64,000 nt of DNA from a virus, in IMG/VR virus record IMGVR_UViG_3300020473_002209, positions 32,001 to 96,000 of that record. One strand, 5' to 3'. Position numbers and translations under genes: made by a program. Of the stretch, positions 11,516 to 56,919 are shown piece after piece. Position 1 is the stretch's first letter, and each line of letters starts with the position of its first letter. The notes under the pieces are model-generated. The model saw only the letters and a list, made by a program, of their open reading frames with translations, did no database searches and was not told the DNA's origin.

Positions 11516-14500
11516 ATGGCTGAACTTACATTTAAGAGCCCGGGTGTTTCTACCAAAGAAATAGACCTTTCGGGTCCGACAGTAACCGGACCGAGCGGAG
11601 TACCAGCTGGAGTTATCGGAACAGCAGATCAAGGACGAGCATTTGTTCCCATAACAATGGCGACTTTCTCTGATTTTGTGGCTGAATTTGGTAACACCGA
11701 TGGCACGAAATTCGGTCCAATGGCAATGAGGCAGTGGTTGCAATATACCCAGGCGGGAACCTATCTTAGGGTTCTGGGCGCTGGTGACGGCAAGAAGAGA
11801 GCAGCATCAGGTGCTGTAACAAATGCTGGCTTTATTGTCGGTGAGCAACTCCCCAAAGGAAACGGAATCTTGGGTAGGAATACCTACGCTGGTGCAGGCA
11901 CATCGGGCGGCGGTGCTCTTGGTCGTGCTTCGTTTCTGGCAGTTTGTATGTCTGCCCCTGATGGTACTACTCTCCCAAATACATCGAACACTTATCTTAC
12001 AGAAGCCGGCCTCCAGGCAAGCCAGCCAATTCTTAGAGGAGTTATTCTCGCTGCGTCTGGTGTTTTACCAGCGCTGAGTGCTTCTAGAGCTGCAACTGCA
12101 ACTGCTTCCACCGGTAGTCGTGGCGAAGCTGGATACGGCGGTGGTCTTTTCTCTGGGAATAATATTCCTCTCGGGGCCCCAACAGCTCAGAACCTCTGTG
12201 CAGCCACATCGTTTGGTACTGCTGCGACTAAGAACGCTGGTTCTACACTCGGGGCTGTTGATATCGCTGGTGGAAAGCAAGAATTCGTCCTTTTATTAAA
12301 TGGCCACACGCATACAGACTCATTCCCCACAGTTATTACTGCATCATTCGATCCGCAGGCACCGAATTACCTTGCTAATGTTCTTAATACTGACCCTATG
12401 GACCTTCAGAAGGCGGGCCACTATCTTTACACTCACTATCCTGTATACAGCAGCTTTGCGGTTCCAACCGGCTCTGGTTTGATGAACTACAATTATGAGC
12501 CTGCCGTAGACGGACTAGTGGGGTCAACGCAAAAGAAGATGGAAGACATCGCGTTCTTGGTTACTTCTTCGCTTGGAAGAAATGCTGGCAGCGCTACGAT
12601 CCCCAACTTTGAAGGATTCCGTGATCGGTTCCGCACTGCTGCGGCACCAAAAGTTATATCTCAAAATTACGGTGGTTCACCAAAGGACCTATTCCGTATC
12701 TGGTGTTTGGACGATGGCGCTATTGGGAACCACCGTGTTAAGATTTCTATCGACAACATCGTGAAATCGACAAATGTTAACAACAAGTATTGTGTATTCG
12801 ATCTTGCAGTTAGAGACTTTGAAGATACTGATGACCTTCCCGTAGTTATCGAGAAATTCCCCAAGCTTTCTCTCAATCCTCTCGATGAAAGATACATCGC
12901 CAGAGTAATCGGTGACTATCACCTGTATTATGACTTTGACAAGAGGGTAGGCTCTCAGAAGCTTGTTGTTGAGGGAAGCTATCCTAACCGTTCGAACTAT
13001 ATCCGCGTCGAACCGGTAGACGCTCTTGATAAGGGCGAAATCCCCGCTGATGCAGTACCTTGCGGTTTCCGCGGTATTGATCACCTCGTGACTTCTGGTT
13101 CGAGCATCTTTAAGATGCAATCGGCCGACTTCGCGGGAGACATTGGTCTTGGTGCATTTGCAAGTGCAGACATAGTTCAACCACCTGTTCCACTGCGTTC
13201 AACGGTTGCTAGAGGGCTGTCACCACGCAAAGTCCTTGCATCTCAACTCTACTGGGGTATCCAGTTTGAGAAGAAGCAAAACAGGAAAGAGCCGAATAAG
13301 AGCACTGTTTACGACGGTTCTATGGAGCAGTGGGGCACGTATTTCCCAAATTACGCACAGACTACACAGGCTGCCTTAGTGGGAGATAACGCTGGTGTTG
13401 CCGACGCGGGTGGTACGATTCTTGACTGTGACCGCTTTAACAATAACAAGTTCTCGCTTGAGAATATTCAGGTTATCGTAACCTCTGCCGATAAAGCAGA
13501 TTCGAGCCAGTGGGCAGCCGCGACGTATCGTCGGAACGGCGCAGCAGAAAGTATGGAAGACGTTGATGGTACTACAAAGACAACAGCGTCAGGGCTTACG
13601 AGACTTCTTAGCGTAGAAAAAGACTTCGGCCTTTCCTCGGCAAGAAAATTCCTCAAGTTCTCATTCCTTGCGCAAGGTGGCTTTGACGGATTAAACATCT
13701 TTGATAGAAATAAGTTCGAAATGACTTCTACTGCCTGTAAGAGAGAGATGGATGATTCGGAACAGGGCGAGACAAACGGTCCCACTGTTGCTAGTTACCG
13801 AAAGGCGCTAGACATTCTTGAGCAAAGAGCAGACGTAAATATCCAACTCCTCGCGATTCCCGGAATACGTCATGAGTCTGTAACTGACTACGCAATCACG
13901 ACTGTTGAAGATCGCTTCGATGCGCTCTACATCATGGATATTGAGCAAACTGATACTCTTGGAAAAGTAGTGACAGGCTCAGCTTCCATCGTCAGTGTTA
14001 CGAATACAGTGGCAGATTTCCAAAGTCGAAATCTTGACTCTTCATTCGCAGCTGCATACTTCCCTGACGTTATCATGGAAGAAGTGAATACAGGCGGAAA
14101 TGTTGTGGCGCCAGCTAGTGTTGCGGTCCTTGGGGCATTTGGTCTAAATGATAAGATCGCATATCCCTGGTTCGCTCCAGCCGGTTTCACACGTGGCGCT
14201 CTTAAGCATGTTAGAGAAGCTAGCGTGAAGCTGAACAGAGACAACCTCGATGCACTGTACGATGTGGATATCAATCCAATCACTGCATTCCCTCAATCGA
14301 AGGAAGTTGTTGTCTTTGGTCAGAAAACACTTCTTGCAGCTCAGAGCGCTCTCGATCGAGTCAATGTTCGTCGCCTGCTAATCGATATTCGACGCCAGGT
14401 ACGTGCTATCGGAGATACATTCCTCTTCGAGCCAAACAGAGAAGCAACGCTTGCAAGATTCTCTGCCGCGGTTAACCCGATCCTCGCAAGAATACAGCAA

Positions 14501-14665
14501 CAGCAGGGTCTTGAGAGATTCAAGGTTCAGATTGATGCAACAACTACAACACAGGCTGATATTGAGAATAATACAGTAAGAGGAAAGATATTCTTACAGC
14601 CTGTCCGTTCGGTCGAATTTATATCACTAGATTTCGTGGTAACTAATGCCGGCATGGACATTTAA
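11516..14665 (+). CDS. Tail sheath protein 2 (paralogue)
   Basis: SPGVSTKEIDLS; PWFAPAGFTRG, INPI, GQKTL, LDRVNVRRLL, FEPN, PVRSVEFI. Confidence 0.92.
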   Translation: MAELTFKSPGVSTKEIDLSGPTVTGPSGVPAGVIGTADQGRAFVPITMATFSDFVAEFGNTDGTKFGPMAMRQWLQYTQAGTYLRVLGAGDGKKRAASGAVTNAGFIVGEQLPKGNGILGRNTYAGAGTSGGGALGRASFLAVCMSAPDGTTLPNTSNTYLTEAGLQASQPILRGVILAASGVLPALSASRAATATASTGSRGEAGYGGGLFSGNNIPLGAPTAQNLCAATSFGTAATKNAGSTLGAVDIAGGKQEFVLLLNGHTHTDSFPTVITASFDPQAPNYLANVLNTDPMDLQKAGHYLYTHYPVYSSFAVPTGSGLMNYNYEPAVDGLVGSTQKKMEDIAFLVTSSLGRNAGSATIPNFEGFRDRFRTAAAPKVISQNYGGSPKDLFRIWCLDDGAIGNHRVKISIDNIVKSTNVNNKYCVFDLAVRDFEDTDDLPVVIEKFPKLSLNPLDERYIARVIGDYHLYYDFDKRVGSQKLVVEGSYPNRSNYIRVEPVDALDKGEIPADAVPCGFRGIDHLVTSGSSIFKMQSADFAGDIGLGAFASADIVQPPVPLRSTVARGLSPRKVLASQLYWGIQFEKKQNRKEPNKSTVYDGSMEQWGTYFPNYAQTTQAALVGDNAGVADAGGTILDCDRFNNNKFSLENIQVIVTSADKADSSQWAAATYRRNGAAESMEDVDGTTKTTASGLTRLLSVEKDFGLSSARKFLKFSFLAQGGFDGLNIFDRNKFEMTSTACKREMDDSEQGETNGPTVASYRKALDILEQRADVNIQLLAIPGIRHESVTDYAITTVEDRFDALYIMDIEQTDTLGKVVTGSASIVSVTNTVADFQSRNLDSSFAAAYFPDVIMEEVNTGGNVVAPASVAVLGAFGLNDKIAYPWFAPAGFTRGALKHVREASVKLNRDNLDALYDVDINPITAFPQSKEVVVFGQKTLLAAQSALDRVNVRRLLIDIRRQVRAIGDTFLFEPNREATLARFSAAVNPILARIQQQQGLERFKVQIDATTTTQADIENNTVRGKIFLQPVRSVEFISLDFVVTNAGMDI

Positions 14666-29602: not shown

Positions 29603-30799
29603 ATGCCCATCTTACTTCATAAGAATTACATTGGTACAGAGAACCACATGATTATAAGTGGCGGCTTAATAAGATGGTCTAGTGAAATATCGGATAAGTC
29701 TTATTTTGTTATAGGCTGCCCTGGTCGCCCTGACTCTCTGGAGCCTTTGTTAAAATTATATGATATAGATATTCCTGATTTTGTACCAGAAAGATTTAGG
29801 AAGAGCTTCTCTGATATACGAACCGCTATTTCGGTTCCGTGGCGCTACGTTCTCCCGCGAAAAGTGTTTAAGGAAAATTTCAAGAAGTATGTAGAAGACC
29901 TTTGTAAGATTGAAGAGTTGCTATCAGAAAGCGATTACCCTAACTTCTTTATCGACTCGAATGAGCTGTTCAGTAATTTACGCCAATCCAAGATCGATAC
30001 AACGCTAACAATCAAGCTATTAAAGCATAATGATTCGCACGTTTTGAGGAAGCTATTATCGGGTTCTTCTGGTTCTTTTTTAGATGTACCGCGCTATGAT
30101 CGAGTGTCCACAAAGACTGGTCGACTTACAATTAAAAAGGGTCCGCAGGTCTTGACTCTAAAGAAGGAATTTCGGTCAGTGTTTACGCCGGAAAAATCTA
30201 ATACATCCCTTTATGAAATTGACTTTGTTTCTCTTGAGCCGAGGGTAGCTCTTAATCTAGCAAATGTGCACGCGTCGAGTGACGTGTACCTTTCATTTAT
30301 AGAGTCAACGAATATTGATATTTCCAGAGACACGGCAAAGCTAGCAGTGTTATGCTCGCTGTATGGAGCAGGAAATTTACGACTTGAACAGTTGCTGAGA
30401 AAAGACAAATCAGAAGTGACCGCGTCATATTTGATGAGAGCAGTTTCTGATTATTTCAAGCTGAATGATCTCAAGCGAGAGCTACGATATCAGGCAAAGA
30501 GTGGGATGATACAAAACTTCTTTGGTCGCCCAATTGAAATAGACGGCGCAAGAGAAAGTATTCTCGTGAATAATTACTTACAATCTACAGCATCAGATGT
30601 GGCTATAGCTGGGTTTAACGAATTCACGAAGTTGTTTTCTAGTAAGTGCAAACCCTTGTTTGTAATTCACGATGCATTGATTATAGATGCTTCTACTGAG
30701 CATTTAGACGCTATAACAAAATATGTAAATACAGGGTTTAACGTTCCAAAGCTTGGAAATTTCCCGCTTAAGATAAAAGAGTTTAACGATCATGAATGA
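29603..30799 (+). CDS. Minimal family A DNA polymerase (polymerase domain only)
   Basis: TKTGRL, motif A DFVSLEPR, motif B RDTAK...LYG, NYLQSTASD, motif C IHDAL. Confidence 0.8.
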   Translation: MPILLHKNYIGTENHMIISGGLIRWSSEISDKSYFVIGCPGRPDSLEPLLKLYDIDIPDFVPERFRKSFSDIRTAISVPWRYVLPRKVFKENFKKYVEDLCKIEELLSESDYPNFFIDSNELFSNLRQSKIDTTLTIKLLKHNDSHVLRKLLSGSSGSFLDVPRYDRVSTKTGRLTIKKGPQVLTLKKEFRSVFTPEKSNTSLYEIDFVSLEPRVALNLANVHASSDVYLSFIESTNIDISRDTAKLAVLCSLYGAGNLRLEQLLRKDKSEVTASYLMRAVSDYFKLNDLKRELRYQAKSGMIQNFFGRPIEIDGARESILVNNYLQSTASDVAIAGFNEFTKLFSSKCKPLFVIHDALIIDASTEHLDAITKYVNTGFNVPKLGNFPLKIKEFNDHE

Positions 30800-33456: not shown

Positions 33457-34653
33457 ATGGCAAAGAAAAAAGGTGGCAACGGCAGTGATGATTTCACTTC
33501 TGACTTGATTAAGTCTCTTAACAAAGAGCACGGTTCTAGGGTGGCGTATAATCTTTCAACAGACGAATCTCCAACTCACGTTAATCGATGGATTAGTACC
33601 GGATCCGAGCAGCTAGATTATATCATCGCGAATCGTAGTAATGGGGGATTACCTGAGGGTAGGATTATAGAGATATTTGGGCCTCCGTCTATTGGGAAGT
33701 CTCATATTGCGATTCAGATTGCAAGATCATGTCAGCTTCTCGGTGGAATCGTAGTTTATATAGATACAGAGAATGCAACTTCTGTTGAAAACCTGGGTTT
33801 GCTGGGTGTTGACATCAACAAGCGGTTTGTATATGTTGATACGCACTGTACAGAAGAGGTTCTTTCTATTGCTGAATCAACCATAATGAAAGCTAAGGCG
33901 ATGGACAAAGACGTCCCAGTAACGATTATCTGGGACTCTGTTGCTGCTTCATCTCCTAAGGCCGAGCTCGACGGAACGTACGAACAAAATTCTATTGGTT
34001 TACAAGCTCGCGCAATCTCTAAAGGTATGCGCAAAATTACAGGTGTCATTGCAAATCAGAATGTCCTGTTTATCTGCTTAAACCAAATTCGCACTAAGAT
34101 TGGAGTTATGTATGGCGATCCTACTACTACACCCGGCGGTAAGGCAATCCCTTTTCACTCATCTGTACGAATCAAACTGGGAGCGGGACAACAGATCACA
34201 AACAAGAACAAGGAAGTCATCGGTATCCATGTTCGTGCTAAGACTATTAAGAATAAGGTAGCTCCTCCGTTTCGAGAATGTAATTTTGAGATCCATTTTG
34301 GTAAGGGCATTGTGGAACATGAACAGGTTTTTGATGAGCTAAGAAAGCATGGTGCTGAGATTATCGATGGGAAAGAGATTTGTGTAAAAGGAACCAGCGC
34401 ATGGAAAAACCTTACTGTGACAGATACAAAGACGGGTGAGATAGAGCTTGAAAAGAAATTTTATAAGGCTGATTTCGGAGACGTGTGGAAAGACCCGGAG
34501 TATAAACCATACGTCGACTCTCTTCTTGGTGCGTGTATGATTAGAAAGATGTCTGATGATGAACATGCAACTCTTGATACAGAGTCTTATGAAGAAGTTA
34601 GAGCCGCAGCAATGGAGATTAATTTAGAAGATCTTCCGGACCTGAATGACTGA
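33457..34653 (+). CDS. recA: RecA/UvsX recombinase
   Basis: GGLPEGRIIEIFGPPSIGKS, IIWDSVA, NQIRTKIGVMYGDP.TTPGG, KNKVAPPF. Start moved to the ATG at 33457 (GAGG RBS). Confidence 0.93.
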   Translation: MAKKKGGNGSDDFTSDLIKSLNKEHGSRVAYNLSTDESPTHVNRWISTGSEQLDYIIANRSNGGLPEGRIIEIFGPPSIGKSHIAIQIARSCQLLGGIVVYIDTENATSVENLGLLGVDINKRFVYVDTHCTEEVLSIAESTIMKAKAMDKDVPVTIIWDSVAASSPKAELDGTYEQNSIGLQARAISKGMRKITGVIANQNVLFICLNQIRTKIGVMYGDPTTTPGGKAIPFHSSVRIKLGAGQQITNKNKEVIGIHVRAKTIKNKVAPPFRECNFEIHFGKGIVEHEQVFDELRKHGAEIIDGKEICVKGTSAWKNLTVTDTKTGEIELEKKFYKADFGDVWKDPEYKPYVDSLLGACMIRKMSDDEHATLDTESYEEVRAAAMEINLEDLPDLND

Positions 34654-35603
34654 TGAAAGATCGACCAGTTTTATTGATTGATGGATTGAATTGTTTTTAT
34701 AGGCATTTTGTAGCGAATCCATCCATGGGGGAAAATGGCAATCCTGTCGGTGGCATTGTGGGTTTTCTAAAAGGAATTCAGCTTTTAACAGAGCGCTATT
34801 CTCCAGATTCTGTTGTGGTTGTGTGGGAGGGCGGCGGATCTCCTCGAAGAAGGTCTATCGACCCGACCTACAAGGGCGGCCGAAGACCTGAAAAGCTAAA
34901 TCGATTCTATTCAGGTGATTTACCTGATACGGTCTCGAACAGAAATGAGCAAATTTCAAAGCTGGTAAGCCTCATAAGAAAGACAGCAATTCCACAGATC
35001 TATATTTCAGACTGTGAAGCGGATGACGTTATTGCTCGCCTCTGTAATGTCGTGCTTAAGGAACGAAGGTGCATTATCGTTTCTACTGATAAAGATTTTT
35101 ATCAATTAATTGATGAGAGGATCAGCGCTTGGTCTCCAGGTAGCAAGAGAGAGTGGACGGTTGACAAAGTGCTACAAGAATTTAGGATACATCCTGTAAA
35201 TTTTTGTTTAGCAAGATGCTTTGTTGGTGACGGGTCTGACGGGCTAAAAGGTGTCCCTGGAGCTGGGTTTAGGAGCCTTGCAAAGAGGTTCCCTCGTTTA
35301 GGAAGTGAAGAATCTCTGACTGTTTCCGACATACTTACAGAATGTGAAGATCTTCGGAAACAAAAGCGTCTGAAGCTCTATGATAGCATCATAGATCACG
35401 AAGATACTGTCAACAAAAATTGGAAGCTTATGTATTTGGGGCATGGAAACGTATCGGGAGCTCAGGCTAAGAAAATAGACGAAGCACTTGAAATTTCCAG
35501 CTCAAAGAGAGATAAGCTTGGGTTTATTCGTTCCCTTAGAACACTGGGAATAAAAAATTTCGACTATGACAAATTGTTCATGACCTTACGAACATTGGGG
35601 TAA
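34653..35603 (+). CDS. 5'-3' exonuclease / flap endonuclease (T4 RNase H-like)
   Basis: LLIDG, YKGGR, EADDVIA, STDKDFYQL, GDGSDGLKGVPGAG. Confidence 0.9.
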   Translation: MKDRPVLLIDGLNCFYRHFVANPSMGENGNPVGGIVGFLKGIQLLTERYSPDSVVVVWEGGGSPRRRSIDPTYKGGRRPEKLNRFYSGDLPDTVSNRNEQISKLVSLIRKTAIPQIYISDCEADDVIARLCNVVLKERRCIIVSTDKDFYQLIDERISAWSPGSKREWTVDKVLQEFRIHPVNFCLARCFVGDGSDGLKGVPGAGFRSLAKRFPRLGSEESLTVSDILTECEDLRKQKRLKLYDSIIDHEDTVNKNWKLMYLGHGNVSGAQAKKIDEALEISSSKRDKLGFIRSLRTLGIKNFDYDKLFMTLRTLG

Positions 35604-41094: not shown

Positions 41095-42105
41095 ATGCTG
41101 GTTCATCTAGACTACATTTGGGTTGACGGCTTTGAAAACCCGTCAATCAGATCAAAAACTAAAACGGCAGTACTGCAGGTCGATGAAAACGGTGAAGTGC
41201 AGCTAGACGTTCCAGAATGGAATTTTGATGGTTCATCAACTGGTCAGGCTGACACAGGCGACTCTGAAAGAATTCTTAAGCCACAATCGATGTATCAGAT
41301 TGCAGATAATCATTATGTCGCGCTATGTGAAGTGTGTATGCCGGATGAAGACAGGACCCCCCACCCCTCAAACTATAGAGCAAAATTAAGGGAAGCAGTG
41401 AGAGAAACAGAGGGCGCAAAAGAAATGTGGGTTGGTTTCGAGCAAGAGTATTTTATCACCGCAGCTGGTAAGAATGTATTTTGGCCAGACTCTGGTGAGC
41501 CAGTTAAGGATTCTAGATACTATTGCTCTTCAGGTGGTAGCGTTAAGTTCAGAAAAATGGTCAGAGAACACGCTTCATTCTGTAATCAAGTGGGCATTAG
41601 GGTTGTGGGTTACAATGCAGAGGTTTCCCCAGGACAGTGGGAGTATCAGTGCTTTGCTGAAAATCCGCTCACCGCCGCAGACTCATTGTGGGTTAGCCGA
41701 TATATCTTGGAGCTAATGACTGAAGACCTTGAGCTTGGTATAGACTGGCACCCCAAGCCTCACCCCGGGTGGAACGGGTCGGGCTGTCACACTAATTTTT
41801 CTACAAAAAAGATGCGGGAAGAAGGTGGTAAAGAAGAATTCCAGCGTATTATTTCTAACATGGAAGCTCGCCATAACGAATCAATATCAGAGTACGGTGA
41901 AGATAATTCCTTACGCTTGACGGGTGGGTTTGAGACAGCTTCATTAAACCAATTTTCATACGGTGTTGCTTCACGTGACACTTCTGTAAGAATACCAAAC
42001 CGTGTTGTAGAGCAAGAATGGAAGGGCTATCTTGAGGATCGTCGTCCTTCGTCAGGGTGTGACCCTTACAGGGTCGCTTTACAACTTTGCAAGTTTGTAC
42101 AATAA
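41095..42105 (+). CDS. glnII: Glutamine synthetase type II
   Basis: PEWNFDGSSTGQA, GFEQEY, NAEVSPGQWEYQ, WNGSGCHTNFS, GYLEDRRPSS..DPY; 336 aa. Confidence 0.9.
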   Translation: MLVHLDYIWVDGFENPSIRSKTKTAVLQVDENGEVQLDVPEWNFDGSSTGQADTGDSERILKPQSMYQIADNHYVALCEVCMPDEDRTPHPSNYRAKLREAVRETEGAKEMWVGFEQEYFITAAGKNVFWPDSGEPVKDSRYYCSSGGSVKFRKMVREHASFCNQVGIRVVGYNAEVSPGQWEYQCFAENPLTAADSLWVSRYILELMTEDLELGIDWHPKPHPGWNGSGCHTNFSTKKMREEGGKEEFQRIISNMEARHNESISEYGEDNSLRLTGGFETASLNQFSYGVASRDTSVRIPNRVVEQEWKGYLEDRRPSSGCDPYRVALQLCKFVQ

Positions 42106-42543: not shown

Positions 42544-43251
42544 GTGAAAAGAATTGAGCTTTATAACGACGCCATCGGCGCCGTTGAGTATGTTGAACAC
42601 ATGGGGTCAGATTTGACAGTGATAAACAGCGCGAGGGTTTCATTCGGAAAAGTAAAGGAATCGCTAGATGAAAAAGATAAAAAGCTTATTCGCTACCTTA
42701 TCAAGCACAGGCATACGTCGACTCTTGAGCACAATGTTATTACTTTCCGGTTTACTGTACCTCTTTTTGTGCGCAGCCAGCATCACCGCCACAGAACTTG
42801 GTCTTATAATGAGATATCTAGAAGGTACACCGACGTAGACATTAGGTTTTATGAGCCGAAGAGTTTCAGGACCCAGCATAAGTCAAATCGACAAGCTTCG
42901 AACACCAACGAAATGATAGACCCTGTACTGATTCCAGATCTATCAGATCCTGATGTTGGGTTAACAGCAGCGCATTGTATAGAACAACACCATAAGCTGT
43001 CTTTGCGCCTCTATAACGACCTCATGAAGAACGGCGTTTGTCGAGAGCAGGCTCGTGGGGTATTACCTCAAAACCTCTATTCAGAGTACTATGGAACAGT
43101 CAACTTAAACAATCTACTTAAGTTTGTTGAGCTACGTGTCCATGAGGGCGCTCAGTGGGAAATACAGCAGGTGGCGAGAGCGTGCCTGGAAATTGCGAAA
43201 GAAATTTGGCCCGAAACTATTTCTGCATATCGAGAACTTCGCGATATTTGA
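42544..43251 (+). CDS. thyX: Flavin-dependent thymidylate synthase
   Basis: SARVS, HTSTLEH, RHRTWSYNEISRRY, EQARGVLP, AQWEI. Confidence 0.93.
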   Translation: MKRIELYNDAIGAVEYVEHMGSDLTVINSARVSFGKVKESLDEKDKKLIRYLIKHRHTSTLEHNVITFRFTVPLFVRSQHHRHRTWSYNEISRRYTDVDIRFYEPKSFRTQHKSNRQASNTNEMIDPVLIPDLSDPDVGLTAAHCIEQHHKLSLRLYNDLMKNGVCREQARGVLPQNLYSEYYGTVNLNNLLKFVELRVHEGAQWEIQQVARACLEIAKEIWPETISAYRELRDI

Positions 43252-43890: not shown

Positions 43891-44319
43891 ATGATGACAT
43901 GGATCCCACCCGAGTCCCCATACGACCTGCTGCAAGAGCGCTTCTGGCCAGATGAGTGGAAGCTTCTAATGGTTTGCCTTATGTTAAATCAGACATCAAG
44001 AAAGCAGGTTGAGCCAATGATATCCGATTTCTTTGCTACATTTCCAACGCCTGAGTCTGTTGTTGATGCGGATGAAGAAATTCTTCGATCGTTCCTACAG
44101 CCTCTTGGACTAGTAAACCGTCGTATAAAAACTGTAAAGAAGTTTAGCGAAGAATTTGTCACAAAAGACTGGCAAACTGCAAAAGAGTTATACGGTTGTG
44201 GAAAATACGCTGATGATGCTTACCGTATTTTTATGCGCGGTGAGTGGGAGTCTGTTGAACCAACCGACCATGCGTTAAATGATTATCATAATTTTCTTGT
44301 ACAGATTCATAATCGATGA
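43891..44319 (+). CDS. MBD4-like HhH-GPD DNA glycosylase (T/U/hmU:G mismatch)
   Basis: WIPPESPYDLLQE, WKLL...LNQT, LQPLGL, ELYGCGKYADDAYRIF and PTDHALNDYH parallel the MBD4 catalytic domain (recalled). Confidence 0.85.
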   Translation: MMTWIPPESPYDLLQERFWPDEWKLLMVCLMLNQTSRKQVEPMISDFFATFPTPESVVDADEEILRSFLQPLGLVNRRIKTVKKFSEEFVTKDWQTAKELYGCGKYADDAYRIFMRGEWESVEPTDHALNDYHNFLVQIHNR

Positions 44320-44352: not shown

Positions 44353-44652
44353 ATGAGCTCTAACCAACCAACATACACAATGGATGACACAACAATCGGA
44401 CATGTCGCCCAATTACTTCAGCTTGCAATTTTGACTGGTACTGATATTATCGATCATTTTCGGACTGCAAGGTTCACTACAAGTGATGAAGGCACGCTTA
44501 CACTCCATCCAGACTATGCAGAAAATTTTGACGATAACGTACAGAAGATGCTAAGAGATGCTGCTGCTGAGGCGAAGCCCGAACCAGACACTAGAGAGTG
44601 GGGAACCACAGAAGTTTCTTTTTCTCTTAATCAGGATGGCCTCAAAGAATAA
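44353..44652 (+). CDS. Hypothetical protein
   Basis: GGGAG RBS; translationally coupled to the next gene. Confidence 0.6.
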   Translation: MSSNQPTYTMDDTTIGHVAQLLQLAILTGTDIIDHFRTARFTTSDEGTLTLHPDYAENFDDNVQKMLRDAAAEAKPEPDTREWGTTEVSFSLNQDGLKE

Positions 44653-45026
44653 TGGACGACAAGCTTCAAAGAATATTCGCTTTACGTGAAGAATTTATGC
44701 AGAAGATAAACTCTACAGTCCCCGATGCATATCCATCGTGGCCTGTAGATTTGAGCAAGAAAAAGAACCAGAAAGCAATTCGTGAATTTGCGTTTCGTGG
44801 AATGGAAGAGTTGTTCGAAGCGCTTCTGCACTTGAAGAATTGGAAAGACCACAGAGAAGAAACATACGGCGTTCCAGAGTTTGATCGGGAAGAATTTTTA
44901 GAAGAAATGATTGATGCGTTCAATTATTTTCTTGCGATAATTGTGCTTTCTGGTGTAGACTATAAAGAGTTTTTCAACGCTTATGTAAGGAAACACGATA
45001 TTATAACGGAGCGCTTAGATGCATAG
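44652..45026 (+). CDS. All-alpha NTP pyrophosphatase (dimeric dUTPase/dCTPase, MazG-like)
   Basis: EELFEA...KNWK...EEMIDAFNY...YVRKH metal-binding E/D pattern. Confidence 0.78.
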   Translation: MDDKLQRIFALREEFMQKINSTVPDAYPSWPVDLSKKKNQKAIREFAFRGMEELFEALLHLKNWKDHREETYGVPEFDREEFLEEMIDAFNYFLAIIVLSGVDYKEFFNAYVRKHDIITERLDA

Positions 45027-49873: not shown

Positions 49874-50905
49874 TTGCATATTGGTACGTACCAGTCGTTT
49901 ACACATTGCTACATATCGTTGGTAAGAAATGTTTATGAAAATCCAGCGTTTGAAGCAGCACCTCGTGGCCAAAAGGTCAAAGAAATACTCGGGGCATCAT
50001 TTACAATCACCAACCCAAGAGACAGAATTCCCTATGTTGCCGGTCGTAAGTTCAGCATTTCGTACATGGTTGCAGAGCTTGTGTGGTATCTTTCTGGTAA
50101 TAACGAAACAGCGTGGATTTCAAAGTATTCAAATTTCTGGCGTAATATCTCCGATGATGGTGTGACAGCGAATTCTGCTTATGGTGCAAGACTCTTTAAG
50201 CACCACCCCAAGATTGCTCAAGGAAGATTTAATCAGTGGGAATACATCATCGATGAGCTTACACGTGATCCAGACTCCCGTCGTGCAGTGATGCACTTGA
50301 GGGTTCCTGATGACAGCATCGACGCTAAGCTGGATGTACCCTGTACACTTGCTCTTCAATTTTTTATTAGAGATGGTAAGTTACACCAGGTTGTAAATAT
50401 GAGAAGCTCCGACGTGATATTCGGTATTGCATATGATATTCCAGCGTTCACAATGTTCCAAGAATTGCTTGCCAATGAGCTGGGCGTTGGGCTTGGTACA
50501 TACACACACACCAGTAATTCACTGCACATATATGAGCGCCACTTCGAGATGGCAGAGAGTATTTTACAAACTTCTAACGTCAATAAGTCACAGTTTGCGC
50601 TTTGGAAAAAGTACGGCCCGATGCCACCACTTAATTGTGTTTCAAGAGATGAGCTCTCTTATTGGACAGACAAGATGATGGAGCTTGAGAAAGACTTGAC
50701 CAACTCGACATCAGTGGATTCTGTCCACCAAGCATTCCGCCGTGTATTTGCGTATCCGACTGCTGATGCACTGACATGGCATGATTTCGCAGTGGTATTA
50801 GCCGCTGATAGAATAAGAAAGATATCTACCAGGGATGAGGCAAGAAAAATGTTAGAAAATTTGAAATTTGAAGGTTATCGGTTTAACACAAGGAGTGTAA
50901 AGTGA
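49874..50905 (+). CDS. Thymidylate-synthase-family enzyme, predicted dCMP hydroxymethylase
   Basis: DSRRA, catalytic PC (VPCT), RSSDVIFGIAYD with Asp at the dUMP/dCMP specificity position, HIYERH. Confidence 0.8.
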   Translation: MHIGTYQSFTHCYISLVRNVYENPAFEAAPRGQKVKEILGASFTITNPRDRIPYVAGRKFSISYMVAELVWYLSGNNETAWISKYSNFWRNISDDGVTANSAYGARLFKHHPKIAQGRFNQWEYIIDELTRDPDSRRAVMHLRVPDDSIDAKLDVPCTLALQFFIRDGKLHQVVNMRSSDVIFGIAYDIPAFTMFQELLANELGVGLGTYTHTSNSLHIYERHFEMAESILQTSNVNKSQFALWKKYGPMPPLNCVSRDELSYWTDKMMELEKDLTNSTSVDSVHQAFRRVFAYPTADALTWHDFAVVLAADRIRKISTRDEARKMLENLKFEGYRFNTRSVK

Positions 50906-52032
50906 GTAAGTACGATTATCTGATTGTGGGTTCAGGAATATTTGGGTCTACATTTGCTAGAGAAATGACAGATGCCGGGTATAGGTGTCTTGTCATAGAT
51001 AAGCGAGACCATATCGCTGGTAACGTCTATTCAGAAAAGCGGAATGGTGTGGATGTCCATGTGTACGGAGCGCACATCTTTCATACCAGCAGCGATCGCA
51101 TTTGGGATTATGTAAACCGATTCGCGACCTTTAACAACTACATCAATAAGCCGAAGATTCGTTTCAATGATCGTATTTTTTCGTTCCCCATTAATTTAAT
51201 GACGCTCCACCAGTTGTGGGGTGTTATGACCCCTGCCGAAGCAGAAGCCAAGCTGGAAGAAGTCCGGATTCCGTGTGAGAACCCTGATAATCTTGAAGAC
51301 TGGATTCTTTCTCAAGTCGGTCGTGAAGTTTATGAGACTTTCATCAGGGGCTACACGATGAAGCAGTGGCAGCGAGATCCAAAAGAGTTACCCGCTTCCA
51401 TCATCAAGCGTCTTCCTATCCGAATGGTTTTTGAAGAAAACTATTTCTTTGACAAGTATCAGGGGATCCCTAAGGAAGGGTATACTCAGATGGTTGCGAA
51501 TATGCTGGAAGGTATTGAGGTCAGGACAGGCGTCGATTATTTTGCGAATAGAGATGAGCTGAACAGTCTTGCTGAAAAAGTTGTGTTCACTGGAAAGATC
51601 GATGAGTATTTTGGTTATCAGTTTGGAGAGCTAGAATATAGAACGCTTCGCTTCGAACATGAAGAGCTTGAGGGAGACTTTCAGGGAAATGCAGTTGTAA
51701 ACTATACACATCCTGATGTTCCATACACTCGGATTGTTGAGCATAAGCATTTCTTACCAGAGACGGCTAGTAAGATTCCAAACACTATTATTACTCGTGA
51801 ATATTCAGATGAGTATAAGCGTGGAAAGACGCCTTACTACCCCATTAACAATGAGAAGAATACTTCAATGTATAAGAAGTATGCTGCTATGGCTCATGAA
51901 GAATCAGGAGTCATTTTCGGCGGAAGGTTGGCAGAATACAAGTACTACGACATGCACCAAGTTATCGGTTCTGCACTTGTAAAAGCTAAGCGTGAGCTTG
52001 AAAAACGTAAGAAATCAACATATAATGGTTAA
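50902..52032 (+). CDS. glf: UDP-galactopyranose mutase
   Basis: GSGIFG FAD motif, HIAGN, YGAHIFHT, YQGIP, YTRIVEHKHF, PYYP, GRLAEYKYYDM. Confidence 0.93.
   Translation: MSKYDYLIVGSGIFGSTFAREMTDAGYRCLVIDKRDHIAGNVYSEKRNGVDVHVYGAHIFHTSSDRIWDYVNRFATFNNYINKPKIRFNDRIFSFPINLMTLHQLWGVMTPAEAEAKLEEVRIPCENPDNLEDWILSQVGREVYETFIRGYTMKQWQRDPKELPASIIKRLPIRMVFEENYFFDKYQGIPKEGYTQMVANMLEGIEVRTGVDYFANRDELNSLAEKVVFTGKIDEYFGYQFGELEYRTLRFEHEELEGDFQGNAVVNYTHPDVPYTRIVEHKHFLPETASKIPNTIITREYSDEYKRGKTPYYPINNEKNTSMYKKYAAMAHEESGVIFGGRLAEYKYYDMHQVIGSALVKAKRELEKRKKSTYNG
51998..52026 (+). promoter_or_regulatory. Sigma70-like promoter for the glycosyltransferase
   Basis: TTGAAA-17 nt-TATAAT, embedded in the end of glf. Confidence 0.72.
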
Positions 52033-52047
52033 TATTAAGGAGAAAAA

Positions 52048-53103
52048 ATGAGGGTCTTGTATAGTTTTTGGGGGTTTATCACTCCGCTGGAAAAGAATAG
52101 CATTGTTGATACACCTGATGGTGAGCGCGGCAACCGCGTTGATTGGGTGAATGAGCTACTTAAGCGCGGTCACACACCGATTCAGCTCCAGAAAATGAGG
52201 GATGATGAGCAGTATCCCGGCGTGGAGTATGACGATTCCGGCTTTCCAGACGGAGATATTCTCTACGTAGAGTGGCGATGGCCGACTTGGAAAAATAGCG
52301 GCGAAAATCCTGCTGAGCCAGACTATAATAGGCAATGCCAGGTGCTTGACTACTATCATGAGCAAGGGATTCCAATTGTTATTGTCGATGGTGATCTTAA
52401 GATGACGCCTGAAGAAGAGCTGCGCTGGCCAAATGCCATACTTGCAGATGCATGCGTTTCACCACAGCATCAGACTCGTAAGCGTATCACAATCCCTTGG
52501 TGCAACTATATGAAGAGGTACTTTGAGCCAGTTGAGTATTCGTACAATTACACATACGTCGGAAACAACTACGAGCGTGAAGAGCCTTTTGCGAAGTATT
52601 ACACTGGACCGAGTACCGCACTTCGTGCAGGCGGCGTTCAGACAATGATTTATGGAAACTGGCTTAATAAGTCACCTGAGAGAATTGATCCAGCAAAGCT
52701 ACTTGCCCAGACTCCAAACGTTGCTTTCGGTCCGCGGTTGGCGTATAAAGACATCTTTGGTGTTCTTAATTCTTCTATCACTGTGACCCACATCACTAAG
52801 CCAGCATACACTCCGTTCGGGAATATCACTGGACGCTTTTTCGAAGCGATTAAGAGTAACGTCCCCGCGCTAATCCCTATCGAGTTTCAGCATGCTGTCC
52901 CTGTCGCTCTTTCAGATAAGTCTTTGCTGGTTGAATCGTCACGAGATGTGTTTGAGAAAGTGAAGTGGCTATCCACGCTTAATGGCGAACAGAGGAAGGC
53001 TCTTGTTGATGCACAAGAGGAGGCTCTGAGGACCGTGATCGACCCGCGGCCTGAATATAGGACTGATTTGCTCGAGCACATTCTGGGGGACTATCGGGCA
53101 TGA
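52048..53103 (+). CDS. DNA glycosyltransferase, T4 beta-glucosyltransferase-like (GT-B)
   Basis: 351 aa. YVGNNYERE, IYGNW, NITGRFFEAIKSNVPALIPIEF and RKALVDAQEEAL align by eye with T4 BGT as recalled (YGGSFRSGQRE, FFGNA, FITLRVWETMASDAVMLIDEEF, RKEMLSIQHDIL). Confidence 0.72.
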   Translation: MRVLYSFWGFITPLEKNSIVDTPDGERGNRVDWVNELLKRGHTPIQLQKMRDDEQYPGVEYDDSGFPDGDILYVEWRWPTWKNSGENPAEPDYNRQCQVLDYYHEQGIPIVIVDGDLKMTPEEELRWPNAILADACVSPQHQTRKRITIPWCNYMKRYFEPVEYSYNYTYVGNNYEREEPFAKYYTGPSTALRAGGVQTMIYGNWLNKSPERIDPAKLLAQTPNVAFGPRLAYKDIFGVLNSSITVTHITKPAYTPFGNITGRFFEAIKSNVPALIPIEFQHAVPVALSDKSLLVESSRDVFEKVKWLSTLNGEQRKALVDAQEEALRTVIDPRPEYRTDLLEHILGDYRA

Positions 53104-53624
53104 AAATTGCGTTCATCGGGCCAGACATGACAGGGAAATCTAATATTGCCGCAGAGCTGTCTCTACAGACTGGAATTCCAGTATTTAAGAATTCTGGAGA
53201 GTGGAAAACTGAACTCGGTAGTCCTGATTACTTTCTTAACCTTTTGCGCTACGGCGGTCCATTCCTCATGGACTTTATGAAGCAGACTGATGTGAAAGTA
53301 ATCCTTGACCGCTTTTATCCTTGTGAGCTCGTATACGCAGAAGCATTCGAGCGAGAGACCGATATGTCTGCGATATCTTGGATGGATGTGAATTTTGCCG
53401 AAGCATCTGGCAAATTTATTATTTGTTTGCGCAAAGATTATTCTGGCTTGATTGATGATCAATACCCTGATGATTTACCAAAAGAAATGCTTGAAAAGCT
53501 TGATAAGCTGTACAGGGCGTTTGCCGACACAACAGATTGCGATTGTCTTATTTTAGAAACCGACGATAGAGACTTGAACAATCAGATCAAAAAGATTAAA
53601 ATGTTCTTAGGAATTAAAACTTAG
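53100..53624 (+). CDS. dNMP kinase (thymidylate kinase-like)
   Basis: P-loop GPDMTGKS; ILDRFYPCELVY. Confidence 0.8.
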   Translation: MKIAFIGPDMTGKSNIAAELSLQTGIPVFKNSGEWKTELGSPDYFLNLLRYGGPFLMDFMKQTDVKVILDRFYPCELVYAEAFERETDMSAISWMDVNFAEASGKFIICLRKDYSGLIDDQYPDDLPKEMLEKLDKLYRAFADTTDCDCLILETDDRDLNNQIKKIKMFLGIKT

Positions 53625-53640
53625 AGAATTGGAGGATTTT

Positions 53641-54645
53641 GTGCGTTTACGTAAAGCACTAGTAACGGGCTGCTGTGGATTTATAGGCAGTCATGTAACA
53701 CAGCAGCTAGTTGAGGCTGGCTGGTATGTTGAGGGGGTTGATGATTTGTCAAATGGCGACTTGTCCACTCTTGAGGGCATGCGATACCGCACAGTAACAG
53801 AGGGAATGCTTCATCTGTATGATGAGCAGGCTGGGGTGCCACTTGCTGGTGAGTTGCTGGTTATAACAGCAGATTTTGCAGCAGGACAAGTTTTGTCTCG
53901 TGTCGCTGCCGGAGATTATGATGTGATTTTTCACCTGGCTGCAAACCCGCGAGTTGAATATTCTGTCAAATATCCAGCATTGACAACGCACACAAACGTT
54001 CAGAAGACGATCGAGCTGATGTCAGCTGCAATTAACAAAATAGACCGATTTGTATTTGCGTCTTCATCAGCTTGCTATGGAGAGGTTGCTCACCTTCCAA
54101 CGACAGAGGAAGAAGCAGAAGACCCAACTTCTCCTTACGGGCTACAGAAGCTTGTGGTTGAACAATTCGCTGAAATGTATACCAAACTTTATGGGATGGA
54201 TTTCGTCGCGCTAAGGTTCTTCAATGTATACGGTCCAGGACAACTCGGGGATTCACCATATTCAACAGCAGTCGCAGCGTGGTGTACACGCCTGAAGAAT
54301 GGCGATCCACTCAGGAGCGATGGCGACGGTGAGCAGACAAGAGATATGATATATGTTAAAGACGTTGCGCAAGCAATGATTGCAGCTGCAGACCACCCTG
54401 AGTATCTTGGGTTTCAGATGTACAATGTCGCCACAGGTGAGTCGGTTTCAAATAACCAGATTTTAGGTGTACTGAAAGAGTACTTTCCTGACCTAACCAT
54501 CACTCATGCACCAGAGAGGGCAGGTGATGTTAAGCATACATTGGGGTGTATAAATAAGATTAGCGAAGATCTTAGCTGGCATCCTCGGAAGCAATTCTGG
54601 GATGGCTTAAGAAAAACGCTTCAATGGTGGGAGCTAATCGATTAA
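53641..54645 (+). CDS. NAD-dependent NDP-sugar epimerase (GalE/WbpP-like SDR)
   Basis: TGCCGFIG, HLAA, ASSS, YGLQK, RFFNVYGP, RDMIYV. GTG start after GGAGG. Confidence 0.88.
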   Translation: MRLRKALVTGCCGFIGSHVTQQLVEAGWYVEGVDDLSNGDLSTLEGMRYRTVTEGMLHLYDEQAGVPLAGELLVITADFAAGQVLSRVAAGDYDVIFHLAANPRVEYSVKYPALTTHTNVQKTIELMSAAINKIDRFVFASSSACYGEVAHLPTTEEEAEDPTSPYGLQKLVVEQFAEMYTKLYGMDFVALRFFNVYGPGQLGDSPYSTAVAAWCTRLKNGDPLRSDGDGEQTRDMIYVKDVAQAMIAAADHPEYLGFQMYNVATGESVSNNQILGVLKEYFPDLTITHAPERAGDVKHTLGCINKISEDLSWHPRKQFWDGLRKTLQWWELID

Positions 54646-55105: not shown

Positions 55106-55960
55106 ATGAGTTCAATGGACCCAAATTCGGTTAACGTAGTGATTTATCATGCAGACTGTACAGACGGTTTCGGCGCAGCTTACTCTGCTTGGAAGCAACT
55201 TGGAAACCGAGCAGAATATTACGCATGCAAGCATGGTACAACACCTCCAGATGTGAAAGGAAAAAACGTTGTAATTCTTGATTTTTCTTGGGATAAGGCG
55301 ACGATCAAGAAGATGATAAAGAAAGCCAAAAATCTACTGATCATCGATCACCACAAGTCAGCTATGGTCGAGCTTCATGATATCTCAAATACTTATTTTG
55401 ATATGACGAAGAGCGGAGCAATGCTGGCGTGGGAATGGTTTCACCCAGGAAAAGAGCCGCCAAAATTCATAAAGTATATTCAAGATCGTGACCTATGGGA
55501 GTGGAAGCTTGAATATTCTAAAGAATTCAGCGCGGCATTTGATATGGTGCCGTTTGAATTTGAAGAGTTCGAGAAGTTTGAAGATGACTCTGTTTTTGAT
55601 GACGCATGTAAGCGTGGGTCCTACATCCTCGCGTATAGCAAGACGGTTGTCAAAAAAGTTTGTGAAAAAGCTCAACCCCGTACGATGGGTGGTAAGTCTG
55701 TCTTGGTGGTAAATGCCTCCCACTGGATGTCTGAGATTGGTGCTCGCTTAGCCCCTGATTGTGATTTTGCAATGATCTGGTATTGGGATCATGAAGATGA
55801 AATAACAAAGGTTAGCTTAAGAGCTTTTCACGATAGCGTTGATGTTTCCGAGATCGCAAAGCAGTTTGGCGGAGGCGGTCACAAGAAAGCAGCGGGATTT
55901 ACTTTACCTAAGGAGAAACACATTGAAGAACTTTTTGACACAGCCGAGCCCGAGGTATGA
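55106..55960 (+). CDS. DHH/DHHA1 phosphoesterase
   Basis: YHADCTDG, ILDFS, IDHH, SLR, GGGGHKKAAGF. Confidence 0.88.
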   Translation: MSSMDPNSVNVVIYHADCTDGFGAAYSAWKQLGNRAEYYACKHGTTPPDVKGKNVVILDFSWDKATIKKMIKKAKNLLIIDHHKSAMVELHDISNTYFDMTKSGAMLAWEWFHPGKEPPKFIKYIQDRDLWEWKLEYSKEFSAAFDMVPFEFEEFEKFEDDSVFDDACKRGSYILAYSKTVVKKVCEKAQPRTMGGKSVLVVNASHWMSEIGARLAPDCDFAMIWYWDHEDEITKVSLRAFHDSVDVSEIAKQFGGGGHKKAAGFTLPKEKHIEELFDTAEPEV

Positions 55961-56516
55961 TATTGTCTACCTGGATCCACCATGGGATTACAAAGGCCAG
56001 CTCCAACATAGTAAGCCTGGAATGGGTGATACAGGTGGCGCTCGCAAGCATTATGGTACACTCAAGCTAAAGCAGCTTAAGCAGTTTCCAATGCAGAAAC
56101 TCATGAATGATGATGCACTGGTATTTATGTGGGTGACGAACCCACATCTTGACCAAGGTATTGAGCTTCTAAAAAGCTGGGGATTGAAATATGCAACCGT
56201 TGGGTTTGTGTGGAACAAGATGCGAGTTAATCCTGGCTTTTACACAATGTCCCAATGTGAGCTTTGTCTTGTCGGAAAGAATGGGAAAATTCCGCGCCCT
56301 CGTGGAGCAAGGAATGTACGCCAATATCTTGAGCACATGCGCGAACAGCACAGCAAAAAGCCAGACGAAGTGCGCGTACGAATTGAGCAAATGTTTCCAG
56401 ATCAGACGAAGGTCGAGCTTTTCGCAAGGCACCAAAACCCAGGGTGGTCAGCTTGGGGCGATGAAGTTGAGAGCTGTGAAAGCCTTAAGAGGTATTTGAA
56501 TGAGCTCGGATGGTAG
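55923..56516 (+). CDS. MT-A70 family N6-adenine methyltransferase
   Basis: DIVYLDPPW, LVFMWVT, WNK, HSKKP, ELFAR, GW.AWGDE. Likely TTG start after AGGAG. Confidence 0.88.
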   Translation: MKNFLTQPSPRYDIVYLDPPWDYKGQLQHSKPGMGDTGGARKHYGTLKLKQLKQFPMQKLMNDDALVFMWVTNPHLDQGIELLKSWGLKYATVGFVWNKMRVNPGFYTMSQCELCLVGKNGKIPRPRGARNVRQYLEHMREQHSKKPDEVRVRIEQMFPDQTKVELFARHQNPGWSAWGDEVESCESLKRYLNELGW

Positions 56517-56919
56517 GCCAGAATGGGATGAGATATGGATGGGCTTTGCTCATTCCATATCTCGTAGATCATACGATCCCAGACACCAAGTTGGTGCCGT
56601 TATCGTGACCAAAGAGAATACACAGGTTCTTGCTGTAGGATATAACGGCAATTACTCTGGTGGGCCCAATGAAGTAGAGTCCACAGAGCCAGGAAGCTCA
56701 GGAATGATCCACGCTGAGATTAACGCATTGTTAAAATGTGACTATAATATTCGCGGAAGAAAAATCATGTATGTGACTCTTAGTCCATGCAAGATGTGCG
56801 CGAAAGCAATAATCAATGGTGGCGTTTCTGAAGTGGTTTATGACGAAGAATATAGGGATATGTCCGGAGTCGACCTACTTAAGTCCGCAGGAGTCACGGT
56901 TAGACGCTATAGAACGTAG
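56500..56919 (+). CDS. dCMP deaminase
   Basis: VGAVIV, GYNG, HAEINAL, PCKMC Zn motifs. Confidence 0.9.
   Translation: MSSDGRPEWDEIWMGFAHSISRRSYDPRHQVGAVIVTKENTQVLAVGYNGNYSGGPNEVESTEPGSSGMIHAEINALLKCDYNIRGRKIMYVTLSPCKMCAKAIINGGVSEVVYDEEYRDMSGVDLLKSAGVTVRRYRT

Follow-up and report, generated by a model that had tools for sequence, protein, structure and literature searches.

MBD4 (MED1) is regarded as a eukaryotic DNA glycosylase tied to CpG methylation, and the table of a 2023 review of base excision repair (BER) gives no E. coli counterpart for it (PMC10573277). According to excerpts of the structural studies on the human and mouse enzymes, MBD4 is specific for thymine, uracil and 5-hydroxymethyluracil (5hmU, hmU) opposite G (PMC3479182, PMC3458566), and pockets of this type exclude cytosine derivatives (PMC3458566). 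The same three bases opposite G are excised by the plant enzyme MBD4L (PMC10573277, in excerpt). As compared by description, MBD4L (Arabidopsis At3g07930) has an MBD4-type domain and no methyl-binding domain, is nuclear and carries a long N-terminal extension. MIG of thermophiles (Mth TDG, PDB 1KEA) removes T or U opposite G; together with EndoIII and MutY of E. coli it shares the HhH-GPD fold with MBD4, from which all three differ by a 4Fe-4S cluster. Here we describe a phage open reading frame (ORF) of 142 amino acids (aa), at positions 43891-44319 of a 64,000-nt stretch of viral DNA, which almost certainly encodes an MBD4-type glycosylase and nothing else. This whole stretch, hereafter the window, comprises bases 32001-96000 of the 126,620-base IMG/VR record IMGVR_UViG_3300020473_002209, with an estimated completeness of 40%.

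Among described phages, the closest comparison is offered by the Xp12 group. In Xp12 DNA all cytosine is replaced by 5-methylcytosine (5mC), and the ThyA homolog of Xp12 makes 5mdCMP (bioRxiv 10.1101/2024.12.05.627091, in excerpt). Genes gp61-65 of phage AXL1 are the same as those of the Xp12 operon; gp65 was called ‘ENDO3c’, its active site being considered unclear, and in the sections of that study drawn on here it was not connected with MBD4 (PMC9206674).

All six motifs of the MBD4 catalytic domain listed in a first-pass annotation of the window are present in the 142-aa translation (W4IPPESP10, L13LQE16, L32NQT35, P71LGL74, G102CGKYADDAYRIF114 and P124TDHAL129). In a phmmer comparison with 177,635 distinct PDB sequences, the best 15 matches were MBD4 glycosylase domains, with E values from 8e-39 to 3e-37. 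Alignment to the eukaryotic domain (human residues ~426-580; PDB 4DK9, 4E9G, 4EW4, 4EVV, 1NGN and 3IHO), which has the same length, is gapless over query residues 2-141 (140 residues), with 41-53% identity. The next PDB families were MutY (E 5e-4, residues 20-80 only) and MIG (E 0.26), in line with the marginal sequence similarity of these enzymes. HhH-GPD is the sole Pfam domain of the ORF (44.7 bits, cut-off 26.2), and it scores far under the cut-offs of the NCBIfam models nth (25.4 bits, cut-off 211.7) and mutY (24.4 bits, cut-off 286.5). In BLASTP, MBD4 of the lancelet Branchiostoma (P0276) is identical in 66 of 137 residues (48%), without gaps. Judged by these similarities, the assignment to the MBD4 type is as good as certain, and the motif observation holds far beyond chance.

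Only two cysteines (C29 and C103) are found in the protein, which ends 16 residues past the catalytic Asp (D126); a four-Cys Fe-S cluster of the EndoIII/MutY type is thus excluded, as had been proposed. Different from full-length vertebrate MBD4, the whole phage protein equals the glycosylase domain. It lacks the N-terminal part and linker, and Pfam detected no methyl-CpG-binding domain (MBD, PF01429) in the ORF, whereas the combination of MBD and HhH-GPD is present in the eukaryote-type member P0280. At E <= 1e-5 the protein matched none of the PHROGs families. The public gene call (P0006) begins at M27, giving 116 aa and losing Gln15, so this automatic annotation cuts off part of the MBD4-like active site. 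Homology to MBD4 and to viral homologs begins at residues 2-4, which supports the 142-aa start over that at M27. A scan for promoters and terminators around the gene yielded 10, with 7.7 expected from shuffled sequences, and is therefore no better than chance.

Roles of individual residues were taken from the human (PMC3479182) and mouse (PMC3458566) MBD4 structures, with query position n corresponding to human position n + 434. They were followed through an alignment of 308 sequences, comprised of the window protein, 120 stand-alone metagenomic, 34 IMG/VR and 3 isolated-phage proteins, and 150 representatives of 50%-identity clusters. In human MBD4, as excerpted from PMC3479182, Asp560 is catalytic and Gln449 is essential, Q449A being inactive. 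The base is read by Tyr540 and the backbone of Val448, with Gln449 and Tyr540 hydrogen-bonded to O2 and N3 of T, U or hmU, while Arg468 occupies the gap of the flipped base and the orphan G is read by the carbonyls of Arg468 and Leu506. Excerpts of the mouse study (PMC3458566) give D534N as inactive, Y514F as nearly inactive and Leu482 as the wedge, and place Tyr514 at the lysine site of bifunctional enzymes (hOGG1 Lys249).

The catalytic Asp, D126 in the window protein (human D560), is invariant in 157/157 viral and 142/142 long eukaryote-type sequences. Q15 (human Q449) is Gln in 155 of the 157 viral sequences, the remaining two being gapped at this position, and Y106 (human Y540, mouse Y514) is Tyr in all of them. 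N33 (Asn467) and L72 (Leu506) are both invariant across the viral set, and the wedge L74 (Leu508) is L or M in all but 2 of 154 marine viral homologs. Because Tyr stands in place of the HhH lysine, as in MBD4, the enzyme should be monofunctional. The DNA-penetrating loop differs from that of MBD4, reading LNRTSG in eukaryotes and LNQTSR in the window protein. The Arg-finger position (human R468) is occupied by Q34, so that a basic finger is missing; K or R at this position is characteristic of eukaryote-type representatives (123/142), not invariant. Position 471, mostly Gly in the latter (107/142), is Arg in 150/154 marine viral homologs (R37 in the window, three residues past Q34, where it might stand in for the finger). 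As read from this alignment, the chemistry-bearing residues are intact and the DNA-penetrating loop is rebuilt in the marine viral clade.

A word-indexed search at E <= 1e-5 recovered 279 proteins of 78-249 aa, mostly 137-158 aa long and from marine metagenomes. Exhaustive search of 50%-identity representatives gave 2471 matches at E <= 1e-3, including 138 at E <= 1e-30. The best 150 of the 2471 are 40-53% identical to the window protein (one short fragment 69%) and are mostly long proteins that carry the domain C-terminally; named members among those sampled are eukaryotic (Branchiostoma MBD4, an MBD protein of Elysia, Pigoraptor and Ceratiomyxa). Neighbours of the window protein in the ESM Atlas belong to clusters labelled as 83-100% viruses. 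Among 50,697 phage records, homologs were detected in 14, which represent nine distinct phages: seven of the Xp12 group, with Xanthomonas or Stenotrophomonas hosts, Janthinobacterium phage Donnerlittchen, and cyanophage S-TIM54.

The Xp12-type subfamily has 246 matches, mostly on contigs of up to ~66 kb. Its described members, named ‘ENDO3c’ or ‘endonuclease III’ (Xp12 QNN97216, AXL1 gp65 and Donnerlittchen USN14433), are stand-alone MBD4-type proteins like that of the window, with the same catalytic residues and 32-35% identity to it, but they belong to another phage family (60-kb siphoviruses). An MBD4-like gene of this type with an adjacent Asp-type ThyA-fold gene (L101; P0397, P0414) lies on ~61-kb contigs labelled Brucella abortus at NCBI; judged by size and gene content, these contigs look like an Xp12-like phage genome inside those assemblies.

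We also scanned prokaryotes, with one genome for each of 185,579 species, for two peptide patterns characteristic of the marine clade, a design that divergent bacterial homologs would escape. A single locus was disclosed, on a 306-kb contig of a metagenome-assembled genome. It was rejected as a sign of a bacterial reservoir, since a T4-type capsid gene on the same contig identifies it as phage DNA. Phages are the sole non-eukaryotic holders of the MBD4-type family that were found.

For the phylogeny (97 rows, 142 columns; IQ-TREE quick search, LG+C20), viral sequences were thinned to 70% identity and eukaryote-type ones to 62%, and rows shorter than 110 aa were dropped. Marine viral proteins, S-TIM54 and a few metagenomic proteins of 150-290 aa form one cluster of 41 rows, with SH-aLRT support of 92 (95 without outgroups). 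Xp12 and Donnerlittchen are placed within a eukaryotic subgroup, on a long branch of 2.1 changes per site, and this placement may be due to long-branch attraction. The root given by E. coli Nth and MutY, which falls among eukaryotes, was not used because the outgroup branches measure 8-9 changes per site. In an approximately unbiased (AU) test on a 42-row subsample (LG+G4), a single clade of all viral rows was not rejected (p-AU 0.63), and the constrained tree surpassed that of the quick free search by 5.3 log-likelihood units. These data are compatible with one division between the MBD4 domains of phages and those of eukaryotes, and give no firm word on the direction of transfer. The suggestion that the protein bears on the origin of MBD4 is upheld, since phages are the only other holders found.

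The modification-related genes of the window are presented in Table 1 together with candidate repair functions. Central among them is a ThyA-fold enzyme whose best PDB match is the CMP 5-hydroxymethylase MilA (E 2e-49), followed by ThyA (1e-22) and T4 gp42 (4e-19). It scores under all thymidylate-synthase (ThyA) cut-offs, carries Asp at the position of E. coli ThyA N177 (‘AY[D]IP’), as does T4 gp42, and keeps the catalytic Cys146 (‘VP[C]TL’). We consider it a probable dCMP hydroxymethylase, a methylase being the alternative. The MazG-like protein is a candidate dCTPase which would clear unmodified dCTP, T4 gp56 being the model for this role. ORF 52048..53103 has no match in PDB, PHROG or NCBIfam.

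Table 1. Positions (window numbering) of the MBD4-type gene and of genes discussed with it
Feature	Position	Strand	Support or remark
Family A DNA polymerase domain protein, candidate for repair synthesis	29603..30799	+	Pfam DNA_pol_A E 6e-11
5'-3' exonuclease / flap endonuclease, candidate for a downstream BER step	34653..35603	+	Pfam 5_3_exonuc_N E 4e-29
ThyX, genuine flavin-dependent thymidylate synthase (dTMP supply)	42544..43251	+	Pfam Thy1 E 5e-49; TIGR02170 168.8 bits, cut-off 87.9
MBD4-type HhH-GPD DNA glycosylase, stand-alone	43891..44319	+	142 aa, ATG start, flanking stops
MazG-like nucleotide pyrophosphohydrolase, two genes downstream of the glycosylase	44652..45026	+	Pfam PRA-PH E 1.3e-4; phrog_12184 E 3.4e-15
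ThyA-fold pyrimidine C5-modifying enzyme, cytosine type	49874..50905	+	343 aa, directly after pol III alpha
UDP-galactopyranose mutase Glf	50902..52032	+	TIGR00031 369 bits, equivalog cut-off 304; Pfam GLF E 9e-80
Glycosyltransferase-like protein (weak), candidate DNA sugar transferase	52048..53103	+	Pfam Glyco_trans_1_2 E 7e-4, under cut-off
NAD-dependent sugar-nucleotide epimerase/dehydratase, GalE-like	53629..54645	+	Pfam Epimerase E 9e-50; TIGR01179 galE 155.6 bits, under cut-off 262
DHH/DHHA1 phosphoesterase	55106..55960
MT-A70 adenine methylase	55839..56516
dCMP deaminase family enzyme	56500..56919	+	Pfam dCMP_cyt_deam_1 E 2e-22

Similarity to the T4 hmC pathway (gp42, gp56, cd, td and glucosyltransferases; hmC, 5-hydroxymethylcytosine) extends to the Asp shared with gp42, a dCMP deaminase, a separate thymidylate synthase and sugar-handling genes. 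Unlike T4, the ThyA-fold enzyme is nearer to MilA than to gp42, and the sugar genes are Glf and a GalE-like enzyme instead of alpha- and beta-glucosyltransferases. Such a gene set would be expected where cytosine is replaced pre-replicatively by a sugar-bearing base derived from hydroxymethylcytosine while thymine is retained, and a C5-modified cytosine in place of C is very probable for this phage. The modified-cytosine genome assumed in the first-pass annotation is supported by the cytosine-type ThyA-fold enzyme, sugar genes, ThyX, dCMP deaminase and MazG-like protein; that the base is hmC and no other C5 derivative is presumed from the genes.

Two further features of this cluster were observed. 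The row of Glf, glycosyltransferase-like and GalE-like genes after the ThyA-fold gene (49874-54645) is suggestive of a galactofuranose-bearing hydroxymethylcytosine; we know of no description of such a base in DNA, though no search was aimed at it. The listed ORFs of the DHH phosphoesterase and MT-A70 methylase overlap by ~120 nt, and the true start of the methylase is uncertain.

Association of the glycosylase with dCMP-modifying homologs of thymidylate synthase had been suggested as a check. All ThyA-fold genes found together with an MBD4-like gene are of the Asp type, 24/24 (15 from the window, 11 IMG/VR records, S-TIM54, Donnerlittchen and Xp12, and 9 from Xp12-type IMG/VR loci). S-TIM54, Donnerlittchen and Xp12 contain one ThyA-family gene each in whole-record searches. 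Among 34 IMG/VR records bearing the glycosylase, 11 have a ThyA-family gene, as an ORF of 318-340 aa located 7-18 kb from the glycosylase, and the sole record that is at least 90% complete is one of these 11.

In the second group, Xp12 and Donnerlittchen share the gene order MBD4-like gene, NTP pyrophosphatase, ThyA-fold enzyme, dCMP deaminase and DHFR. In 9 of 14 Xp12-type IMG/VR loci a ThyA-fold gene lies ~1.2 kb downstream, in all nine of the Asp type, and the other five loci are fragments of 2-7% completeness. Two unrelated phage groups therefore join an MBD4-type gene with a cytosine-type ThyA-fold enzyme, and in both an NTP pyrophosphatase and a dCMP deaminase are nearby. Orthology of the NTP pyrophosphatases that neighbour the MBD4-like genes of the window and of Xp12 was considered and rejected, since no similarity between them is detectable (BLASTP E 0.27).

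Repair of deaminated (modified) cytosine in phage DNA is the role that we favour, and we hold it to be probable; family membership, the intact active-site residues, the gene context and the association across phages are shown directly, whereas its substrates, the modified base and the downstream steps are inferred. The ThyA-fold enzyme would make hydroxymethyl-dCMP and the MazG-like enzyme would remove dCTP, Glf, the GalE-like enzyme and the transferase would add a sugar to hydroxymethylcytosine, and ThyX with dCMP deaminase would keep thymine supplied. Deamination of the modified cytosine would leave a T-like base opposite G that is not removed by Ung, and the phage enzyme would start repair back to modified cytosine. 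It would flip out T, U, hmU, or perhaps sugar-bearing hmU, mispaired with G, read the O2/N3/O4 edge of the base by Gln15, Tyr106 and the backbone at residue 14, and cut the glycosidic bond by Asp126, leaving an abasic site. In many relatives an adjacent Nei-type glycosylase/lyase would be the obvious candidate for the next step; in the window, which lacks Nei, host AP endonuclease, phage flap nuclease and polymerase would have to take over.

By homology, the phage enzyme presumably retains the preference of MBD4 for these three bases (T, U and 5hmU) when they face G. In the structural account of human MBD4 (PMC3479182, in excerpt) the 5-hydroxymethyl group of hmU has no protein contact, hence C5 substituents are tolerated. 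A phage relative of dCMP deaminases acts on 5mC and 5hmC in nucleotides and single-stranded DNA (bioRxiv 10.1101/2024.12.05.627091, in excerpt), so the phage's own deaminase is a possible further source of mismatches.

A number of observations weigh against the proposed role in modified-cytosine repair. The first concerns the enzyme itself: of the 154 marine viral homologs, 92 have Q and 62 have L at position 468, where K and R do not occur, and the equivalent of K562 is Ala in the window protein and in all 154, so DNA handling in the viral clade may differ. The second concerns need, as the host was assumed to be unable to repair hmU:G. This is sound for Ung; however, 5hmU in duplex DNA is an efficiently excised substrate of E. 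coli Mug and a poor one of Nth and Nei (PMC3479182, in excerpt). AP endonuclease, ligase and Nei were not found in the 126.6-kb record, of which completeness is ~40%. Furthermore, the 14 homolog-bearing phage records include no phage of Escherichia (T-even) or Pseudomonas, and many modified-cytosine phages evidently do without an MBD4-like gene, T-even phages included.

The remaining points concern co-occurrence. No ThyA-family gene was found in 23 of the 34 glycosylase-bearing IMG/VR records, which are mostly small fragments; four of them (G010, G025, G026 and G034) have 106-135 kb and still no ThyA-fold gene. Several ThyA-less records cover the syntenic region, and one locus (L026, from G025) shares synteny with the window up to the glycosylase gene. 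A C5 DNA methylase, as an alternative post-replicative cytosine modifier, was found in 0/34 of the records.

Relatives were also collected by a pol III alpha anchor irrespective of the glycosylase, which gave 32 loci; some are the same phage from different samples, so counts are not independent. The cytosine-type cluster is present with the MBD4-like gene in 14 loci and without it in 11, nine of which have the full 10-kb upstream flank, and in 7 loci both are missing (5 distant, 2 truncated). The gene was not found elsewhere in the 15 glycosylase-less records (0/15), a search that had no positive control of its own and with which tblastn at the anchored loci agrees. One relative (L064, 8040-8130) keeps a deletion remnant, in which approximately the first 41 nt of the gene run in frame into its last 45 or so, and in the closest relative (L063, pol III 96% identical) the upstream ORF runs straight to the downstream ORF without an MBD4-like gene.

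Where it can be judged, the glycosylase accompanies cytosine-type modification, as an accessory gene that is neither required by nor proof of that pathway. The view that its presence supports the modification model has to be narrowed accordingly: the uniform Asp type (24/24) speaks for it, whereas relatives with the cluster lack the gene, and one lineage with the gene, with records of up to 135 kb, lacks the ThyA-fold enzyme.

In relatives, the MBD4-like gene is associated with a Nei/Fpg-type glycosylase/lyase gene, found no more than 3.4 kb away in 21 of 34 related loci (e.g. L004:10001-11228) and overlapping or abutting the MBD4-like gene in 13 of those 21. In one locus (L033:10001-11236) a single ORF of 411 aa leads from the MBD4-like domain into the Nei-type ‘MPEGPE’ start, with no stop between. 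Nei enzymes use an N-terminal proline, and the Nei half of this ORF would therefore need an internal start or processing. Neither the window nor the remainder of the 126.6-kb record was found to contain a Nei homolog. The pair occurs in a lineage with the ThyA-fold gene (L004-L007) and in a lineage without it (L011, L032 and L033). In the latter, five genes follow the MBD4-like gene in one locus (L011:11285-15062), among them the Nei-type glycosylase, a dimeric-dUTPase-like protein, a weak ThyX homolog of unusual length (329 aa) and a nucleoside 2-deoxyribosyltransferase/DNPH1-like protein, which may represent another pyrimidine-sanitising or modifying set.

Nei pairing is the strongest comparative evidence for a BER role of the MBD4-like protein, and it also supports a general-purpose BER gene of large marine phages. 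Such a gene would remove U (and T) opposite G arising by ordinary deamination during a long extracellular life, together with a Nei-type partner and with no tie to modification. Occurrence of the pair in the ThyA-less lineage speaks for this explanation, as does the location in a replication and nucleotide-metabolism module of conserved synteny, and MBD4 is fastest on G:U, with k_obs of 1.7 per min compared with 0.45 per min for G:T (PMC3458566, in excerpt). It leaves unexplained why ThyA-fold genes seen with the glycosylase are invariably of the cytosine type and why, in an unrelated siphovirus family, the MBD4-like gene heads a 5mC synthesis operon; besides, G:U is already dealt with by host Ung, and the ThyA-less records are all fragments, with no more than 51% estimated completeness. 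We regard this explanation as rather unlikely.

Protection against enzymatic deamination would be compatible with repair of deaminated modified cytosine, the chemistry being identical. Here, T:G or hmU:G would come from the action of the phage dCMP-deaminase-family enzyme on single strands, or from cytosine-deaminase defences of the host. In Xp12-type phages the deaminase gene shares an operon with the MBD4-like gene, in the window it lies close to the modification cluster, and the phage relative cited above has the corresponding activity on 5mC and 5hmC. Activity of the window deaminase on DNA is an assumption, however, and relatives retain the deaminase while losing the glycosylase. As the principal source of substrate, we consider it quite improbable.

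Still less credit, and little in absolute terms, can be given to functions apart from repair of the phage genome, such as DNA binding or regulation, attack on host DNA, or base removal within hypermodification. They could accommodate the changed Arg-finger and Lys562 equivalents throughout the viral clade and the dispensability of the gene among relatives. Conservation of Asp, Gln and Tyr across the 157 viral sequences (apart from the two gaps at Gln) argues for retained glycosylase chemistry, Nei pairing and fusion point to BER, and cytosine derivatives are excluded by MBD4-type pockets.

Finally, mislabelling of an EndoIII-, MutY- or MIG-type enzyme, for which the shared HhH-GPD superfamily, the weak partial MutY match and the low nth and mutY scores could be quoted, has practically no chance of being correct: MBD4 and MutY matches are 35 orders of magnitude apart, and the PDB ranking, residue alignment (no Fe-S cysteines, no HhH lysine), NCBIfam scores and very long Nth/MutY branches refute it, confirming the first-pass annotation on this point.

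As to the phage itself, the window encodes a T4-type major capsid protein, sheath, tube and baseplate proteins, and a replication block with gp32, RecA, 5'-3' exonuclease, DnaB, ribonucleotide reductase and pol III alpha; terminase, portal and prohead protease are encoded by the record as well. Megablast of 10 kb of the window against the 50,697 phage records gave no match. Two adjacent giant proteins (8229-11480, 1083 aa, and 11516-14665, 1049 aa), each with a C-terminal tail-sheath domain, suggest duplicated and much enlarged sheath genes. A homolog of GlnII-type glutamine synthetase is located between amidase and thioesterase genes (window 41095-42105; NF041605 280 bits, below the cut-off of 500). 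The part of the record at 95400-126620 includes GroEL, a sigma-70 factor, peptide deformylase, a zeta-toxin-like kinase, a sulfotransferase and an FkbM methyltransferase.

We found no published description of a phage MBD4-type glycosylase in full-text searches, which covered neither supplements nor subscription journals, nor in the sections drawn on of the Xp12 genome, MetaGPA and TIM5 papers. Fold and chemistry are those of known MBD4; as far as searched, the stand-alone phage form, the rebuilt loop, the Nei pairing and the tie to modified cytosine are not in print.

With respect to the origin of MBD4, one could imagine the eukaryotic domain as sister to, and possibly derived from, the MBD4-type glycosylases of phages. 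The phage enzymes would have arisen as a dedicated repair arm of genomes fully converted to C5-modified cytosine, in a modular kit with a Nei-type lyase and a cytosine-modifying ThyA-fold enzyme, and eukaryotes would later have joined the domain to a methyl-CpG reader on adopting 5mC. We offer this scenario as speculation, being doubtful of it as a whole.

A domain considered eukaryotic and bound to CpG methylation is thus encountered, at ~48% identity, as a bare 142-aa protein in widespread marine jumbo phages, in the likely context of genome-wide modified cytosine instead of CpG methylation, and a second MBD4-like subfamily exists in Xp12-type phages with fully 5-methylcytosine DNA. If the proposed role is true, small and probably robust T:G and hmU:G glycosylases would become available for biotechnology, and the question of MBD4 origin would gain a concrete non-eukaryotic relative. 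Polymorphism for presence of the gene among near-identical phages provides natural controls for its fitness value. If true, the finding would also show how phages that replace cytosine wholesale cope with the faster deamination of C5-modified cytosines, which is invisible to Ung.

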